Source of the DNA: a virus
Taxonomy: Duplodnaviria; Caudoviricetes
IMG/VR virus record: IMGVR_UViG_3300027985_000306
Span: 1-50,456 of that record
Length of the DNA stretch: 50,456 nucleotides
Strand: one strand, 5' to 3'
Positions 3 to 42,448 of this stretch are shown in pieces. A model generated the notes under the pieces. The model was not told the origin of the DNA and did not search any database. It was given only the letters and a program-made list of their open reading frames with translations. Position 1 is the stretch's first letter; every line of letters starts with the position of its first letter. A program made the position numbers and the translations under genes.

Positions 3-548
3 ATCGTAGCTATCAGCATAGACATGCAGACTAATGCTATCTATATCAGAGACATCGTAGCCCGGAAGATGCATCCACATGAGCTATACGCTGAGATATG
101 TGAGATGATAGTTCGCAACCGAGCCTTTGTACTGGGCGTAGAGGTTACGTCCTTACACGAGTTCATCGTTCACCCTCTTAAGAATGAGCTTCTACGGAAT
201 GGGCTTAACGTTGAGTTTATTGACCTACACGCCCGAGGAGGGGATAACGAGCGTGGCAAGATTCAGCGAATCAAACAGCTCAGCCACTACTATCGGGGTG
301 GTCTCATCTTCCATAATCCAGCAGTTTGCCCAGTCTTGGAAGGACAACTCATGTCATTTCCAAGATCAAAACGTTGGGATGTTATGGACGCCGTTGGATA
401 CTTTCCTGAGATGCTTGAGCGAGGAGAACGCTATATGCTCCCTGCACTGACCGCTGGAGAGTCTCGGGAGAGCGTGGAGAAGGAATACGAAGAACTCGAC
501 AAGGACGGTTACTACTCAGAAGCACTTGACTCATTCCACGTGATCTAA
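3..548 (+). CDS. terL: Terminase large subunit, C-terminal RNase H-like nuclease domain (5'-truncated; continues from the window end)
   Basis: Frame is open from position 3 (IVAISIDMQ...). Motifs GVE, K..RI..L, L..FP...DVMDA are typical of TerL nuclease domains. Lies directly upstream of the portal. Confidence 0.9.
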   Translation: MVAISIDMQTNAIYIRDIVARKMHPHELYAEICEMIVRNRAFVLGVEVTSLHEFIVHPLKNELLRNGLNVEFIDLHARGGDNERGKIQRIKQLSHYYRGGLIFHNPAVCPVLEGQLMSFPRSKRWDVMDAVGYFPEMLERGERYMLPALTAGESRESVEKEYEELDKDGYYSEALDSFHVI

Positions 549-7735: not shown

Positions 7736-8141
7736 TATGTGGAAGGTTGTAGGAGCTGCCCTCGCGGAAGGCTTACCTGCAGAATACCAGACAGATACTT
7801 CTGCCATGACAGCTATTCTAACGGCTGTCCTTAAAGAAGAAGCTACAGTATGGGTGTACAGATCTCCTCAAGGAGATGGTACTACGCGAGCCTCCGCGCT
7901 CGTGTTGACTACTCTTTACCAAGCTCCAATCTTCTTCACCAAACATCTGCTGATCTACTCCTTCTATGCCTTTGAGGTATTGCCAGATGAAGCCTGGATC
8001 TCTGGCTTTGAAACTCTTCGCAAGTACGCTGAGAGTTTGAAGTTGGATAGTATCATCGCGTATACAATGCATCCAGGCATTATCAAAATGGCGAAGACTC
8101 GTTTAGGAGCTGTAGGTGATTACACTCTTCTCGAATTCTAA
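7701..8141 (+). CDS. Hypothetical protein (possible GNAT-like fold, position of P22 gp14)
   Basis: 146 aa between nozzle and ejection genes. Confidence 0.45.
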   Translation: MLIRLLPEQVSSMWKVVGAALAEGLPAEYQTDTSAMTAILTAVLKEEATVWVYRSPQGDGTTRASALVLTTLYQAPIFFTKHLLIYSFYAFEVLPDEAWISGFETLRKYAESLKLDSIIAYTMHPGIIKMAKTRLGAVGDYTLLEF

Positions 8142-29224: not shown

Positions 29225-29262
29225 AAGTTAGTTGTTCCGTGACTACGCAAGAGCGCGTATCG

Positions 29263-29335
29263 CAGGGCCAGGAGGGCTCGAACCTCCAACCTCCAGATTC
29301 AAAGTCTGGTGTTCTGCCAGTTGAACTATGACCCT
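29263..29335 (-). tRNA. tRNA-Gln (anticodon TTG), no encoded CCA
   Basis: Cloverleaf: acceptor AGGGTCA/TGGCCCT, D arm GTTC/GAAC, anticodon arm CCAGA-CTTTGAA-TCTGG, T arm GGAGG-TTCGAGC-CCTCC, discriminator G. Confidence 0.93.
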
Positions 29336-34893: not shown

Positions 34894-35229
34894 CTACTGC
34901 GGTTTGTGGTTGATGATCGGCTTGTAGCGCCGTTCGAAGGTCTCGATGAAGTTCTGAGTACAAGAAGACCGATGCAATACGATCCCGCTACCGGGATGCC
35001 AAGTTACTCGGTTCCAGCCTCCAAACGTAATCGAGTCGTGGCCCACGTTCTGCACACAGAAGTCCTTCGGACATTCTGCTTCTTCGAAGATTCGGTAGAT
35101 GTCATACACAACATGTGCGACCATGTGTGTAGCTTCATCTCCGATCACATCGAGTGCGCGAGAAAGAGCCTGTTTGCCTCTGTCGTCCATAAGCTCAAGC
35201 GTTTGAGTGAGCGATGCGGCTGGCATCAT
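34894..35229 (-). CDS. Hypothetical protein (true start may be the downstream MDDRG)
   Basis: The annotated ATG lies within the CTGATGA core of hammerhead HH-B. Confidence 0.55.
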   Translation of the reverse strand: MMPAASLTQTLELMDDRGKQALSRALDVIGDEATHMVAHVVYDIYRIFEEAECPKDFCVQNVGHDSITFGGWNRVTWHPGSGIVLHRSSCTQNFIETFERRYKPIINHKPQ

Positions 35230-35287
35230 CAGAGGTTGAGAACCACCCCAACCTGACGGGCGGTTGTTGAGACCGCCCCGTTTCGCC
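35222..35287 (-). ncRNA. Type II hammerhead ribozyme (HH-B)
   Basis: GGC-GAAA-[CGGGGCGGT/ACCGCCCG]-TC^-[AGGTTGGGG/TTCTCAACCT]-CTGATGA-T-GCC. Complete catalytic core; predicted GUC cleavage between 35255 and 35254. Confidence 0.9.
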
Positions 35288-35290
35288 TTA

Positions 35291-37537: not shown

Positions 37538-37577
37538 GATGTTACCTCTTTCCTTAGTGCTAAAAGCGATGACTGCT

Positions 37578-37650
37578 GGCATCGTCAGACCTTGGGAACA
37601 ACCCCAAGATGACCGGAGGCGAAGCCTAAGCAACAACCTCCGGTTTCGCC
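37578..37650 (-). ncRNA. Type II hammerhead ribozyme (HH-A)
   Basis: GGC-GAAA-[CCGGAGG/CCTCCGG]-TC^-[ATCTTGGGG/TCCCAAGGT]-CTGACGA-T-GCC. Complete core; predicted GUC cleavage between 37611 and 37610. Confidence 0.9.
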
Positions 37651-37851
37651 TTATTTGCTGCTGTTCTTGTGCTCCTGGTAGATCGCCTCGATGCCGACGT
37701 TGGCGGGGTAGTCGATCTTCCTGGCCGCACCGGGAACGATGTACTCAGTCCACTGGACGTGCAGCGTCTCGAAGTCTTCGTATCTGTGGTAGAGCGTGCC
37801 GTTGATGTACAGCCGCTCGGTGTGGGCGAAGATGTTGACGTGGGCTTTCAT
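37651..37851 (-). CDS. Hypothetical protein
   Basis: 66 aa; its TAA stop abuts HH-A. Confidence 0.6.
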   Translation of the reverse strand: MKAHVNIFAHTERLYINGTLYHRYEDFETLHVQWTEYIVPGAARKIDYPANVGIEAIYQEHKNSSK

Positions 37852-38353: not shown

Positions 38354-38382
38354 AAGTTACGAAAAAATCAAACCAAAGTCAA
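38354..38382 (-). promoter_or_regulatory. Sigma70-type early promoter
   Basis: TTGACT-17 nt-TAACTT upstream of the small early-gene operon. Confidence 0.65.
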
Positions 38383-38429: not shown

Positions 38430-38676
38430 GTAACATCGTAACCTTGTAACCTTGTAACCCCACCACCCTCTCCCCCCAACGGTATCAAACGTAGACGGAC
38501 ACCTACTCTCTACCTTCCCTTCTATCTATCTTCTTTACTTAGTTATTTTTTTCTTTTTTTTTTTAAAGAGAGAGAGAAAGAAAGATAGAAAGAAAGCGCC
38601 GGTCTATGTCCGAGCCGGGACAGAGGAGAGGGGGACATGGTTACATGATTACATGGTTACACAGTTACAACGTTAC
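38430..38676. repeat. Inverted arrays of 8-nt-period GTAAC/GTTAC repeats around a pyrimidine/purine tract (candidate replication origin)
   Basis: GTAAC at 38430, 38438, 38446, 38454; (G/A)TTAC at 38640, 38648, 38656, 38664, 38672; central T-rich then AG-rich tract. Confidence 0.75.
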
Positions 38677-39081
38677 GAATCAGGGGGTCGGAAAGTGCAA
38701 CTACAACACATACCGCAGATAGAAGACAGTTGAGCTTAAATCCACATCCAATCGGGCTGTTTTCTTATTTTTCCTCTTAGCACATAGGACTACGTATATC
38801 GGTGTCTAGCCACATCGCCATACCGACCCCGGCCCCCTTCGTGTAGTTCGTCACACTGTAGCTCACGCTATTTAACTCCCCCTAACAACTACCCCTACCA
38901 GTCAACAACGTTATGGCTTGTACTACGTATATACCCCAACACCTCGTCACACTGTAGCAAGCGGAGCTTCGCCCTACTAGACCATTTTCCTTCGCGGGTG
39001 TAGTACAGCCGTTATTGTACATGGGCCGCCCCCATGCCAGCAAGAACGCAATAACGGTCTTCTACGGTCGTTTATGTACAT

Positions 39082-39120
39082 AAAAAAAGGGACAACCGCT
39101 TACGCGTGGTTGTCCCTTTC
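39082..39120 (-). terminator. Rho-independent terminator of the first early cassette
   Basis: AAAGGGACAACC...GGTTGTCCC followed by TTTTTTT. Confidence 0.85.
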
Positions 39121-39150
39121 TTGTATGGATAAGGGTTGCTTTTTCCTTAC

Positions 39151-39375
39151 TTACTTGTTCGCGTTCATGTTCGCACTTCCGTTCACTTCAACGTGAAGGA
39201 ATCCGAACATTCCCTTACGGAATTTGACCTGTACTTCAACGGGCACGTTGAACGTTTCCGATGTGTACGTGAAGGTCACGCTTTCCGCGTCTTGTGTGCC
39301 GTTCAACATCTTGTATGAGGCTTCAAGCAACAAATCCTCAACAATCCGTTCGGCTTGTTTCTTTGGGAAGAACAT
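39151..39375 (-). CDS. Hypothetical early protein
   Basis: 74 aa; shares the atypical codon usage of its upstream neighbour. Confidence 0.65.
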   Translation of the reverse strand: MFFPKKQAERIVEDLLLEASYKMLNGTQDAESVTFTYTSETFNVPVEVQVKFRKGMFGFLHVEVNGSANMNANK

Positions 39376-39380
39376 GACGT

Positions 39381-40094
39381 TTACTTGTTGTCGTTGTTGT
39401 TGTCGTTGTCGGTACCTTCGTTGTTCGCGGATTCCTTCGCTTTCTTCGCTTCGATCATTGCCTTTTCACGTGCTTCCAACAATGCGATCAAGGCGCGAAC
39501 ATCTTCCGGGGTTTCGGCTTTGGTTTCCTTCAACAACTTGTCGGTCTTTTCTTCCGTTGACAACGGATACTCCATCGGCACACCGATGTTGTTGAATCCA
39601 ACCTCAACAACGGGGATGGATTCCTTCACATCTTCCATCTTGCCGCCCAAGGCGGCTTTCCGGCGAACGGTGCGGGTGATACGCTTTCCATCGTTCAACG
39701 GCTTTCCGTCTTCACCGATCGCCCCCCATGACTTCCAGAAGCGATGAAAGGCGGCTTTCGTCTTCGGCTTGTCCCTGTTCACTCGTGCGAACGTGACAAC
39801 CTTTTTACGTGCCGCTTCCTTCAAGATCGGCTTCAATTCAACCCCGGCGAAGTTGACGTGCAACATGATGTATTCACCCGTTGTGTTGTCCCCTTCGTCT
39901 TTGTCGTATCCAACATGCGTCAACAGCTTGATAACTGCTTCCGGCACATCGGGGACAACGAACATCGGCTCCTCTTTCTTCGCTTCCGGCTTCACGTCAT
40001 TCGTTGACGTATCGGCTTCCACGGCTTCCACGGCTTCAACAACGTCCGTTGTTGCCGCTTCAACGGCTTCAACTTTCTTGGCTTGCTTTGACAT
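39381..40094 (-). CDS. Hypothetical early protein (237 aa, charged), probably first gene transcribed
   Basis: Start MSKQAKK at 40094 after an AC-rich leader; EAV repeats; GAA/CAA/TTG-biased codons. Confidence 0.75.
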   Translation of the reverse strand: MSKQAKKVEAVEAATTDVVEAVEAVEADTSTNDVKPEAKKEEPMFVVPDVPEAVIKLLTHVGYDKDEGDNTTGEYIMLHVNFAGVELKPILKEAARKKVVTFARVNRDKPKTKAAFHRFWKSWGAIGEDGKPLNDGKRITRTVRRKAALGGKMEDVKESIPVVEVGFNNIGVPMEYPLSTEEKTDKLLKETKAETPEDVRALIALLEAREKAMIEAKKAKESANNEGTDNDNNNDNK

Positions 40095-40222
40095 TGGTTC
40101 GGTGTTTGTTGCCCTTGTAAGGGCAATGTGTACGTTCCAGCGGCAAAGCAACCCTTATCCCTTCAACTTCAATCCCAACTTCCCATCGGGCGAACAAGAA
40201 ACCGTCCCTTGTCCCCCCGTCC

Positions 40223-40241
40223 CCCACACATTCAAAGAACA
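40223..40241 (-). promoter_or_regulatory. boxA/boxC-like antitermination signal
   Basis: TGTTCTTTGAA immediately followed by TGTGTGGG in the 5' leader. Confidence 0.55.
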
Positions 40242-40390
40242 CGCTTGCAACCACGCTTGCGCTTGCGCAAACGCGTTGCGCGTACGCATGGAAATGTTCA
40301 AAAGATCCCTGTTTATGTGAATCTAACATGAAGACGGATTCATGCAGGGTTGGCATAACAAGTTAAGTCTAATGTTTACACGCGCTGGAC

Positions 40391-40418
40391 ATAGTATGAA
40401 TCGTGTAAAAAGATACAA
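40391..40418 (-). promoter_or_regulatory. Putative early promoter
   Basis: TTGTAT-16 nt-TACTAT. Confidence 0.45.
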
Positions 40419-40433
40419 GTGAAGACCGTTGTT

Positions 40434-40483
40434 CAACCCGCCCCCCGTACATCAAGCGCCGTGAACAACCCGCCCCCCGTACA
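40434..40483. repeat. 18-bp direct repeat x2
   Basis: CAACCCGCCCCCCGTACA at 40434-40451 and 40466-40483. Confidence 0.85.
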
Positions 40484-40776
40484 CAACATGCGATGTTCAC
40501 CGGCTTTGATATAACCGCTTTGTGTAAACGCTGGAATAATATGCATTTAAGGAGCACCCCCCTTGGGGAACAACGTCCTGGATTGTAGAACGTCAAGCAT
40601 CGACACAATATGGGAGGGTTCTAGCTTTTCCCACATCTTTGTTCACTTCACTCTTGTTCGCCCCGCTTAACAAATTTGTTTTAAACAATTTGTGTGTTGG
40701 GGCTGCTTGCGTTTGGTCGGCGCGTTCTTTATTGTTACGCTGTTCGCCGGACTTTTGTTAGATCACTAAGAAAGCC

Positions 40777-41322
40777 ATGTCAGACGACAGCAACGCAGCC
40801 GCTAGGATCTTCGATATTGATTCCGGGCGCACTAGTCCCGGTTCGTATCAGCTTAAGAAGATGCGGGCTGTCCATCGCCGGATCGCAGAACACGCCGCCC
40901 TAGGTATGAAGGACAAGGACATCGCAGCCGTGGTAGGGGTCACGCCGCAGACCGTAAGCTACACGCGGAAGTCTCAAGTCGTTCAGGACTACATGGACAT
41001 CCTAGAGAGTGCGGCCGCCGGTCAGACAATCGACACGCTGAAGGAACTACGAGAACTCGCGCCCTTCGCGGCGAGGACTCTCGAAATTCTAATGCTGAAT
41101 CCAAACACCGACGACAAGATTCGTGCTAGTGTCGCCCAGGATCTACTTGATCGCGCCGGATATGCTCCGGTGAAGAAGGTAGCCACAGCCCATATGAACG
41201 TTCTCGATACACAGGACATCAAGGACATCAAGAAGAGGGCTCGGGAAGCTGGCGTTATGCTTACATCCCCCGACGCTAGCTCTGTTACAGCCTTGGACAT
41301 AGACGACGACTCCGACGAATGA
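40777..41322 (+). CDS. terS: Terminase small subunit (putative)
   Basis: N-terminal HTH (KDIAAVVGVTPQTVS) and A.DLLDRAGY motif; first late-strand gene. Confidence 0.65.
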   Translation: MSDDSNAAARIFDIDSGRTSPGSYQLKKMRAVHRRIAEHAALGMKDKDIAAVVGVTPQTVSYTRKSQVVQDYMDILESAAAGQTIDTLKELRELAPFAARTLEILMLNPNTDDKIRASVAQDLLDRAGYAPVKKVATAHMNVLDTQDIKDIKKRAREAGVMLTSPDASSVTALDIDDDSDE

Positions 41323-41699
41323 GCGCCGCTAAGTGGAATCGAGATTTCGAAGAGAACTCCCAGTTCGACTTCTACGTGACGAAGTACGACTCGGAGTGTA
41401 CGCCTCAATCCGTAACGGGTTGGGGAGCTAAGTTTCAAGTACGAGCTGATCGGCTGGTCACATCGCCAGTCATCTATGAAGCCACTGTCGGTGCGGGAAT
41501 TACGGTGGAACCCGGCGGAGTGACAGGGTTATTTCATATCTTGTTGACGGTGCCTCAAGTCAACAGCCCTGGGGTGATAGGGTGGACCCGTGGCTTCTAT
41601 GACTTGGTAGTGTGGCCGGCCGACGGCTCGATAATTGACCAGGCCAAGCGCCTCGTTGAAGGCGTGGCTACCTGGAAACCTGCTGCTACGCACCCCTGA
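41319..41699 (+). CDS. Tail fibre attachment / BppU-like Ig-fold protein (putative)
   Basis: TGW.AKFQVR...G...I.LT...YDLVV...RLVEG pattern. Confidence 0.55.
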   Translation: MSAAKWNRDFEENSQFDFYVTKYDSECTPQSVTGWGAKFQVRADRLVTSPVIYEATVGAGITVEPGGVTGLFHILLTVPQVNSPGVIGWTRGFYDLVVWPADGSIIDQAKRLVEGVATWKPAATHP

Positions 41700-42448
41700 T
41701 GGCTGAAGATCCCTACATCTTAGCCGATGGGCAGGACTACATTGCCGAGAAAGACCCCACGCGGGAAGAGGGCATTATAGTCAAAGAAGCGAAACCAGTT
41801 AAACTCTATCTTCCTGGTGAATTCCTGGTACTAGGCCGTGAGCTTTGTCTCCCGAATGAATCCTTCTACATGGTCCCGGACTACGCTCTGTGCGCCGTCA
41901 TGGGGAAGGATCAGATCTGCGAGGAGCTTACAGGTACCGCTCGCGTCGTCTGGTGCACGACTCACCCAGCAGACGGCGTAGTATATGCATCACTCGTAGG
42001 CCCTACGGGACCGTGGATACAGGTTGCTGCTCACTCCGATGATCGACAATGCCACGATCTTGAGTTCCCTGTGCTTGGAGTCGATATCAAGCACTGGTTT
42101 TATGTTGAGTCTACAAGCGCTCTTACTGGCGTTACTCTACAAGGCAGCGGTATTTTCTGCTCCGGAGTTGTCCTTGTTGTTGCTACGTCCGCTACATTCG
42201 CGTTCCTTACGGTTACTAAGAAGAGCTATACGTCGATAGATCTCGTGGTAGACGAGAACGACATGTATGGCGCTCCGAAGTTTCCAGATTTGCTTGTGTC
42301 TTCTAACGAAGCTACTTACGACCCAGGACTTACCACCTACGCTTACACTCCTACAGGAGCAGAAGAGCAACTGACTGATCTTACGATTAGTGCAGTAGAT
42401 GAAAGTGATATGTACTCTGGGATTAAGAGCATGACAATCACGCCATGA
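41699..42448 (+). CDS. Putative virion structural protein
   Basis: 249 aa, beta-rich, with an Fn3-like stretch (VVWCT...Y.....WFYVES). Confidence 0.45.
   Translation: MAEDPYILADGQDYIAEKDPTREEGIIVKEAKPVKLYLPGEFLVLGRELCLPNESFYMVPDYALCAVMGKDQICEELTGTARVVWCTTHPADGVVYASLVGPTGPWIQVAAHSDDRQCHDLEFPVLGVDIKHWFYVESTSALTGVTLQGSGIFCSGVVLVVATSATFAFLTVTKKSYTSIDLVVDENDMYGAPKFPDLLVSSNEATYDPGLTTYAYTPTGAEEQLTDLTISAVDESDMYSGIKSMTITP

Follow-up and report, generated by a model that had tools for sequence, protein, structure and literature searches.

Here, we describe an unusual leader in the genome of an uncultured phage (IMG/VR record IMGVR_UViG_3300027985_000306, analysed over its entire 50,456 bases and called the window below), in which a boxA-type signal at the head of the early genes is followed by one strand of a long-range RNA helix, while the other strand lies just past the second early gene, next to an intrinsic-terminator-like hairpin. 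A layout of promoter, boxA, helix and open reading frame (ORF) is kept in related phages whose enclosed proteins differ. We consider it reasonably probable, judging from sequence, that this element is an N-independent Nus antitermination leader of the ribosomal RNA operon (rrn) type, coupled to a helix of the leader-trailer kind that surrounds the first early genes. A preliminary description of the same DNA had read the leader as a mimic of pre-rRNA with a hairpin, a boxA, a boxC and a distant stalk; the comparison with relatives upholds the coupling of a boxA-type signal to a long-range stalk (boxA in 12 of 19 relatives, the helix in nine of them and in the window) and does not uphold the boxC.

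An rrn-type boxA in the putative early leader

The three short motifs of the preliminary description lie on the minus strand where it had placed them: GCGCAACGCGTTTGCGC at 40281-40265, TGTTCTTTGAA at 40241-40231 and TGTGTGGG at 40230-40223. The second of these belongs to the boxA, whose core TGTTCTTT is of the rrn type (UGCUCUUU in E. coli, with UGUUCUUU and UGAUCUUU as variants). The exact sequence GTTCTTTGAA occurs once in the window; at up to one mismatch it has 8 matches against 3.5 expected, a number reached by 4 of 100 shuffles. Moreover, four real rrn leaders, each situated directly before 16S rRNA, have TGTTCTTTGAA as their boxA; they were found in an Rfam check of 16 of the 77 genome loci mentioned below and come from two Arenicellales, one Pseudoalteromonas and one Sumerlaeota (L209, L216, L233 and L213). 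This identity of sequence makes the 11-mer of the window a true variant of the rrn boxA.

The boxA lies 146 nucleotides (nt) from the start codon of the first early ORF and is abutted by a hairpin, a possible counterpart of boxB, with a folding energy of -24.4 kcal/mol for the 48 nt 5' of boxA. The fold of the 111-nt leader as a whole (-36.3 kcal/mol, z = -1.0) is not exceptional, and a search of Rfam at a loose threshold gave no match on the leader. In six of 14 relatives a hairpin of -10 kcal/mol or lower ends within 6 nt of boxA, a count that has no control set beside it. As far as can be told the leader stretch is non-coding, lying 130-150 nt 5' of the ATG at 40094; two ORFs of 95 and 48 amino acids (aa) that overlap it look non-genic, judged without a homology search.

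A long-range helix around the first two early genes

The 16-base-pair (bp) stalk of the preliminary description is real. It joins GGATAAGGGTTGCTTT at 40160-40145 to 39142-39127 without a mismatch, and the helix extends to 20 paired positions out of 22 (40166-40145 with 39142-39121). As in a leader-trailer helix, its strands flank what they enclose, here the first two early ORFs, of 237 aa (40094-39381) and 74 aa (39375-39151). It is the sole inverted repeat of at least 14 nt in the window with arms 150-3000 nt apart, and only 0.3% of 300 random window positions equal the exact run of the stalk (0.003). The length of the helix, 16-22 bp in the window and 18-30 pairs in the relatives, is compatible with an RNase III site of about two turns of double-stranded RNA.

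The terminator-like hairpin that follows has an energy of -17.2 kcal/mol (-24.3 kcal/mol for the 61-nt trailer); a consensus scanner with a stated loop limit of 8 nt missed it, the loop here being 10 nt. A candidate pairing of the G-rich part of the leader with the 3' half of this terminator was no better than in shuffles (0.65) and was dropped.

boxA and helix in related phages

More than 2000 environmental proteins are 50-67% identical to the capsid protein of the window. An alignment of 27 major capsid proteins (MCPs) yielded 341 related stretches in IMG/VR, of which 80 were kept, and 19 whole relative genomes were read from 21 records of at least 42 kb (L109 and L138 were left out). All 19 carry terL, portal and MCP on one strand and PolA on the other, as the window does; terS was recognised in 14 of them, and the methylase and the PD-(D/E)XK nuclease in 18. 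Other routes to relatives were less productive. A blastn search of 39000-42000 against phage records and single-query searches of viral contigs with terS and with the 237-aa protein gave no match, and the terS alignment is too variable for searching. The 494-aa neighbour protein has one relative at 65%, known as a protein only, and its alignment found no match in viral or metagenome contigs. A search of metagenomes with the MCP found a 67% relative whose contig stops 4.5 kb upstream of the MCP, short of the leader.

In the relatives we searched for the 12-mer G[CT]TCTTT[AG]ACAA, which corresponds to the E. coli rrn boxA GCTCTTTAACAA once two transitions are permitted. All eight of its occurrences across the 19 genomes (898 kb) are on the early strand and none is on the late one, against one match for the backwards control and 0.71 expected from base composition over both strands; it is absent from another 61 loci (817 kb), drawn mainly from the structural arm. 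Seven of the eight stand at the head of the early arm; the eighth, in the genome G011, lies between early genes. One-base variants occupy the same place in five more genomes (GTTCTTTGATAA in G018, GATCTTTGACAA in G017, GATCTTTGACAT in G010, GTTCTTTCAAAT in G004 and GTTCTTTTACAA in G008), so that a boxA or a one-base variant of it heads the early arm, on the early strand, in 12 of the 19, with G011 as a thirteenth that has it in mid-arm only. That of G003, GTTCTTTAACAA, is the exact gamma-proteobacterial consensus GYTCTTTAANA as given in the available text of PMC5725501. The window's own TGTTCTTTGAA, searched at one mismatch, is not enriched in the relatives (41 matches against 52 for the backwards control).

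The sequence flanking boxA is unrelated from genome to genome, which makes boxA a conserved island, on the transcribed strand only. Promoters of the form TTGAC[ACT]-16..18-TAnnnT start 38-139 nt 5' of boxA in eight of the ten genomes tabulated, and boxA would thus fall within the first ~100 nt of the RNA. The TTGACA contained in boxA itself was considered as a second -35 element and dropped, as no suitably spaced -10 partner accompanies it in the sequences inspected.

We then compared the 260 nt after each boxA with the following 3 kb for complementarity, using an exact-run control (300 random positions) and a duplex-energy control (80), the latter favouring longer interrupted helices. The exact run stands out in G015 (0.000), G003 and G017 (0.007 each), G006 (0.010), G019 (0.013) and G018 (0.043), and the duplex energy in G009 (0.000), G010 and G014 (0.025 each) and G003 and G006 (0.037 each); the helix passes neither control in G004, G005, G008, G011 and G012. 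A boxA followed by a helix that brackets the first early ORF or ORFs is thus found in nine relatives and the window. In these ten genomes the 5' arm is placed after boxA and ahead of the start region, and the core of the 3' arm falls 7-15 nt after the stop of the enclosed ORF or ORFs in ten of ten, in a search that was free to run to +3000. The arm sequences are entirely different from genome to genome. The enclosed proteins of the relatives belong to at least two families, none related to the 237-aa protein of the window, so that the layout of the RNA is what is kept. Pfam and PHROGs assign no function to any enclosed protein, in the window or in the relatives.

Enclosed genes from unrelated families in different phages are also what would be expected if the inverted repeats acted in DNA, as the ends of a swappable cassette or as a site of recombination or inversion around the first early genes, with boxA unrelated to them. 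We regard this as very improbable: the arms differ in every phage and are hence unfit as shared recombination sites, they are fixed relative to the reading frame (the 5' arm upstream of the start region, the 3' arm 7-15 nt past the stop), their order after boxA and the transcribed strand are fixed as well, and no recombinase or transposase gene stands beside them.

Other inverted repeats of at least 15 nt are rare in these genomes and concentrated in the early arms. Those of G018, G006 and G003 hold further repeats of 15-23 nt with arms 0.2-2.4 kb apart (L194-L196, L158-L160 and L149-L151, respectively), and there long-range helices may bracket more than one early gene.

The word beside boxA is probably not a boxC

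The preliminary description had taken TGTGTGGG for a boxC. It follows boxA with a gap of 0 nt, whereas the gap is 17-23 nt in the four rrn leaders that share the window's boxA and 18-19 nt in Enterobacteriaceae, according to the available text of PMC10250234. It also sits outside the long-range helix of the window, and a boxC-like word after boxA is present in only one of 14 relatives. Finally, it continues into a G-run that shares ACGGGGGG with two 18-nt repeats upstream; ACGGGGGG has three copies in the window, all on the minus strand within 40213-40480, of which the third, at 40220-40213, is only a partial copy of the repeat (no third match to the 18-nt repeat exists there at up to 3 mismatches). 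For these reasons taken together (zero gap, position outside the helix, kinship with the G-run, rarity in the relatives) we reject the boxC reading. On its own, TGTGTGGG is not enriched in the window (2 matches against 1.17 expected, a number reached by 33 of 100 shuffles), and a boxC of the rrn kind, UGUGUGGG placed 17-23 nt 3' of boxA inside the 5' strand of the helix, was not found in the window.

In IMG/VR viral contigs the pattern of boxA followed by boxC has 62 loci, most of which belong to a single coding family in which the gap is 9 nt. Four prophage-like loci from IMG/VR (L006, L008, L042 and L051) have a terminator-like GC stem and T-run, then GTTCTTTGAAAA, then TGTGTGGG 9-10 nt on, with no rRNA within the available DNA of these contigs; they may represent another phage leader with both boxA and boxC.

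Relation to known leaders

The resemblance to rrn leaders extends to the whole order of elements: promoter (the window's own was not found), hairpin, boxA, the 5' strand of a helix, and its 3' strand just past the enclosed gene. In both, the helix is kept while its sequence drifts, as described for Enterobacteriaceae in the available text of PMC10250234, where the helix is also reported to outweigh the boxC sequence in importance. In B. subtilis rrn leaders a small hairpin is directly followed by AUGAUCUUUGAAA, which is bound by NusB (PMC13753749, available text), the same order of hairpin and boxA as in the window. The differences are equally clear. The phage helix encloses protein genes (1 kb in the window, 0.2-0.6 kb in the relatives) rather than 16S rRNA, its core has 11-18 perfect pairs as against 25-40 bp overall in rrn, the boxC-like word lies outside it and is not conserved, and in the window a terminator follows it.

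Among phages, the sequence record of T7 has a perfect GCTCTTTAACAA between A3, one of the host promoters A1-A3, and gene 0.3 (ocr). Like the phage studied here, T7 is lytic and has its early genes transcribed by host polymerase, with a boxA before the first gene and no N protein. It would represent a local-hairpin version, in contrast to the window, where one helix is built from both flanks: we take gene 0.3 to be flanked by two local RNase III hairpins, R0.3 (3' of boxA) and R0.5, of which R0.3 is not annotated in the T7 record. A boxA in a phage early leader thus has a precedent in T7, and the layout with a flank-to-flank helix appears to be a variant of it. Our literature search turned up no paper on the function of the T7 boxA, and the same search, mostly outside subscription journals, found no description of a module of boxA plus bracketing helix in phages.

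The lambda nut sites share with the window a boxA on the early transcript, an adjoining hairpin and a place upstream of terminators. The hairpin of the window stands upstream of boxA, as in rrn, whereas that of nut stands downstream, and in the relatives the hairpin is not conserved. Nor was an N-like protein, the partner with an arginine-rich motif at a lambda-type nut site, recognised: no family was assigned to any early ORF tested, in searches that small N-like proteins can escape.

A fourth comparison is to E. coli suhB, where Nus factors on a leader boxA repress suhB, and boxA is described upstream of many non-rRNA genes (PMC5725501, available text). There too boxA lies in the 5' untranslated region of a protein-coding gene; it is near the start codon and represses, and no bracketing helix is described. 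By analogy, a Nus complex near the 5' end could repress the first early genes through Rho-dependent termination or blocked translation, acting as a brake or timer. Such repression by a leader boxA is documented in the same source, boxA lies 60-150 nt 5' of the first start codon in several relatives, the unit in the window is closed by its own terminator, and a separate promoter-like TTGACT-17-TAACTT at 38382 (-) precedes the next genes. We nonetheless judge a brake of this kind unlikely, as it is hard to see what a lytic phage would gain from repressing the genes it expresses first, a bracketing helix coupled to boxA belongs to rrn and not to suhB, and the suhB search required boxA within 50 nt of the start codon (PMC5725501, available text), as opposed to 146 nt here.

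The phage and its early arm

The window is rated 100% complete. The phage is a lytic SU10-like podovirus, uncultured, and encodes an SU10-type portal and major capsid protein, a PolA-UDG fusion, a PD-(D/E)XK nuclease, a ParB-methylase and a small terminase. Its rightward arm holds the structural genes, from terS at 40777 and wrapping across the end of the record, and its leftward arm the early and replication genes, from about 40094 down to 16525. The leader motifs are on the minus strand, which is the early one, and fall in the gap (40095-40776) that separates terS from the divergently oriented early arm. Their coordinates and those of the features around them are collected in Table 1.

The DNA of the window is present in a hydrothermal vent metagenome, its probable source, and three other runs contain tiny fragments of it; a single A>G difference was noted. 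Most of 46 gene starts inspected lack a Shine-Dalgarno sequence and have A/C-rich upstream regions instead, which hints at a host with weak use of such sequences; one capsid relative sits on a contig filed under Planctomycetes.

Several other elements accompany the early genes. Promoter-like sites on the early strand at 38382, 33783 and 30572 (-), TTGACT-17-TAACTT twice and TTGACA-17-TATATT once, suggest that the early arm may have several internal promoters. Two type II hammerhead ribozymes at 35214-35288 (-) and 37567-37651 (-), both on the early strand and ~2.3 kb apart, score 39.6 and 39.1 bits against an Rfam gathering threshold of 37, and the early transcript may be self-cleaved by them as well. 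A tRNA-Gln (UUG) gene lies within the early arm at 29262-29335 (-). Just 3' of the terminator, in a gene-poor stretch, a large imperfect inverted repeat of GTAACC/GGTTAC iterons surrounds a T-rich centre (38430-38680); a replication origin is one possible role, a further large RNA hairpin another. Rfam matches of the microRNA type on the long hairpin 38437-38663, obtained at a loose threshold, are spurious.

Table 1. Features of the leader, the first early genes and the trailer in the window
Feature	Position	Strand	Remarks
Two perfect 18-nt direct repeats, TGTACGGGGGGCGGGTTG	40434..40483	-	32 nt start to start; 5' of the leader; possible regulator or promoter element
Second, weaker boxA-like motif, GATCTTTTGAACA	40295..40307	-	Resembles B. 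subtilis-type GAUCUUUGAAA (PMC13753749, available text) with one extra U
Stem-loop, ~18 pairs	40241..40283	-	Contains GCGCAACGCGTTTGCGC; ends at first base of boxA
boxA, TGTTCTTTGAATG	40229..40241	-	Core TGTTCTTT matches the 8 nt recognised by NusB-NusE; positional equivalent of G[CT]TCTTT[AG]ACAA in relatives
G-rich tract, TGTGTGGGGGACGGGGGGACAAGGGA	40205..40230	-	Includes putative boxC TGTGTGGG; probably not boxC
Helix 5' arm	40145..40166	-	Perfect core 40160-40145
First early ORF, 237 aa	39381..40094	-	N-terminus acidic, repeat-rich; no known family
Second early ORF, 74 aa	39151..39375	-	No known family; last gene within helix
Helix 3' arm	39121..39142	-	Perfect core begins 8 nt after stop of 74-aa ORF
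Intrinsic-terminator-like hairpin, AAAGGGACAACC ... GGTTGTCCC + TTTTTTT	39082..39122	-	Directly 3' of helix 3' arm

Discussion

The layout described here, found in nine relatives and the window around genes that are themselves unrelated, points to an antitermination leader of the rrn type that has been joined to a helix around the first early genes. Several observations weigh against this reading. The tail of the window's boxA is GAATG and not GACAA, and so lacks the ACAA kept by the relatives and by E. coli. No sigma-70-like promoter was found upstream of it, either in a consensus scan of the minus strand or in a rescan of 40240-40776; since none was found, it is gene order that argues for transcription of this boxA, and from gene order only we infer that the leader belongs to the first early transcript. 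The duplex energy of the window's helix is equalled or bettered at 0.81 of 80 random window positions, in a genome of 50% GC, and the two controls gave each genome two chances to pass. The relatives are only ~50% identical to the window in the MCP, and no closer relative that reaches the leader was found in the collections searched, so that the positional equivalence of boxA is drawn from layout and not from alignment. Six of the 19 relatives have no boxA at the early start (G001, G002, G007, G012, G013 and G016), and four distant cultured phages (Desulfofustis, Vibrio, Pseudomonas 119X and Caulobacter Kuura) have none on the early strand. In G011 a perfect GTTCTTTGACAA stands at position 8035 (+) (L173), between two early genes and just 3' of a stop, far from the early start. 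The comparison with rrn was made with the leaders of the bacteria named above. Lastly, the pattern of TGTTCTTTGAA, 0-25 nt and TGTGTGGG has 77 loci in 596 Gb of prokaryote genomes, against ~110 by chance (rough arithmetic), and most of the 77 belong to coding families.

Three of those 77 loci have a gap of 0 nt, and none of the three adjoins rRNA. The mid-arm boxA of G011 recalls the rrn operons, whose 16S-23S spacer has a second boxA.

The divergent tail and the missing promoter would also fit a different account, in which the window's boxA is a chance or decayed resemblance, and the gap between the two gene arms is a protein-binding control region working through repeats that contain ACGGGGGG, two of them upstream and one beside the supposed boxC. 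All three copies being on the minus strand within 40213-40480, two of them inside perfect 18-nt repeats, agrees with such a region, as does the lack of enrichment of TGTGTGGG. Even so, this account seems to us improbable, because the exact 11-mer is unique in the window and boxA has exactly the same strand and place as in the relatives, past the divergent junction and ahead of the helix's 5' arm; the third G-run, for its part, is only a partial copy of the repeat. As to the tail, NusB-NusE reads only nucleotides 1-8 of boxA according to the available text of PMC3177189. Since these are intact in the window (TGTTCTTT), the missing ACAA need not abolish binding.

For the antitermination leader that we favour, we propose the following sequence of events, in which the binding of Nus factors, read-through of the terminator, tethering and cleavage by RNase III are all predicted steps. 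Host RNA polymerase would start within 40300-40776 and transcribe the stem-loop and then boxA, UGUUCUUUGAA. Host NusB-S10 would bind the nascent boxA and, together with NusA, NusG and SuhB-type factors, produce a termination-resistant polymerase; this complex would shield the ~150-nt untranslated leader from Rho and let part of the transcription continue beyond the intrinsic terminator (39122-39082) and reach the later early genes. With boxA tethered to the polymerase, the 5' arm (40160-40145) would be held near the RNA exit, and the 3' arm (39142-39127) would pair with it on emerging, its core beginning 8 nt past the stop of the second gene. The helix so formed would close a loop of ~1 kb that holds the two first genes, and would most likely serve as a processing or stabilising site for a double-strand-specific, RNase III-type enzyme, giving an end-paired, stable immediate-early mRNA. 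The word TGTGTGGG would be dispensable throughout. In the model published for rrn, the complex keeps hold of the boxA region and can thereby bring the 5' strand to its far-off partner (PMC8632103 and PMC10250234, available text). The same delivery in the phage would account for the joint occurrence of boxA and helix.

The Nus/boxA machinery is usually regarded as serving rRNA and lambdoid N systems, and the assisted pairing of distant RNA segments by such a complex is still debated, and for rRNA only. A module of promoter, boxA and helix around fast-changing protein genes would offer a small, non-essential natural substrate on which assisted pairing could be tested. The leader also suggests a general route by which lytic phages without N may guard their first message from Rho and from decay, and a boxA with a flank-to-flank helix could serve as a sequence signature for locating the start of early transcription in uncultured phage genomes. 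A bolder idea, which we put forward tentatively and hold to be possible though rather doubtful, is that a widespread family of uncultured podoviruses presents its first genes to the host as mock pre-rRNA, with the boxA complex acting, besides its role against termination, as an RNA-looping chaperone that brings the two arms together, and RNase III freeing an end-paired, unusually stable mRNA. If true, this would be the first use of the rrn "tether and deliver" principle for a protein-coding message.
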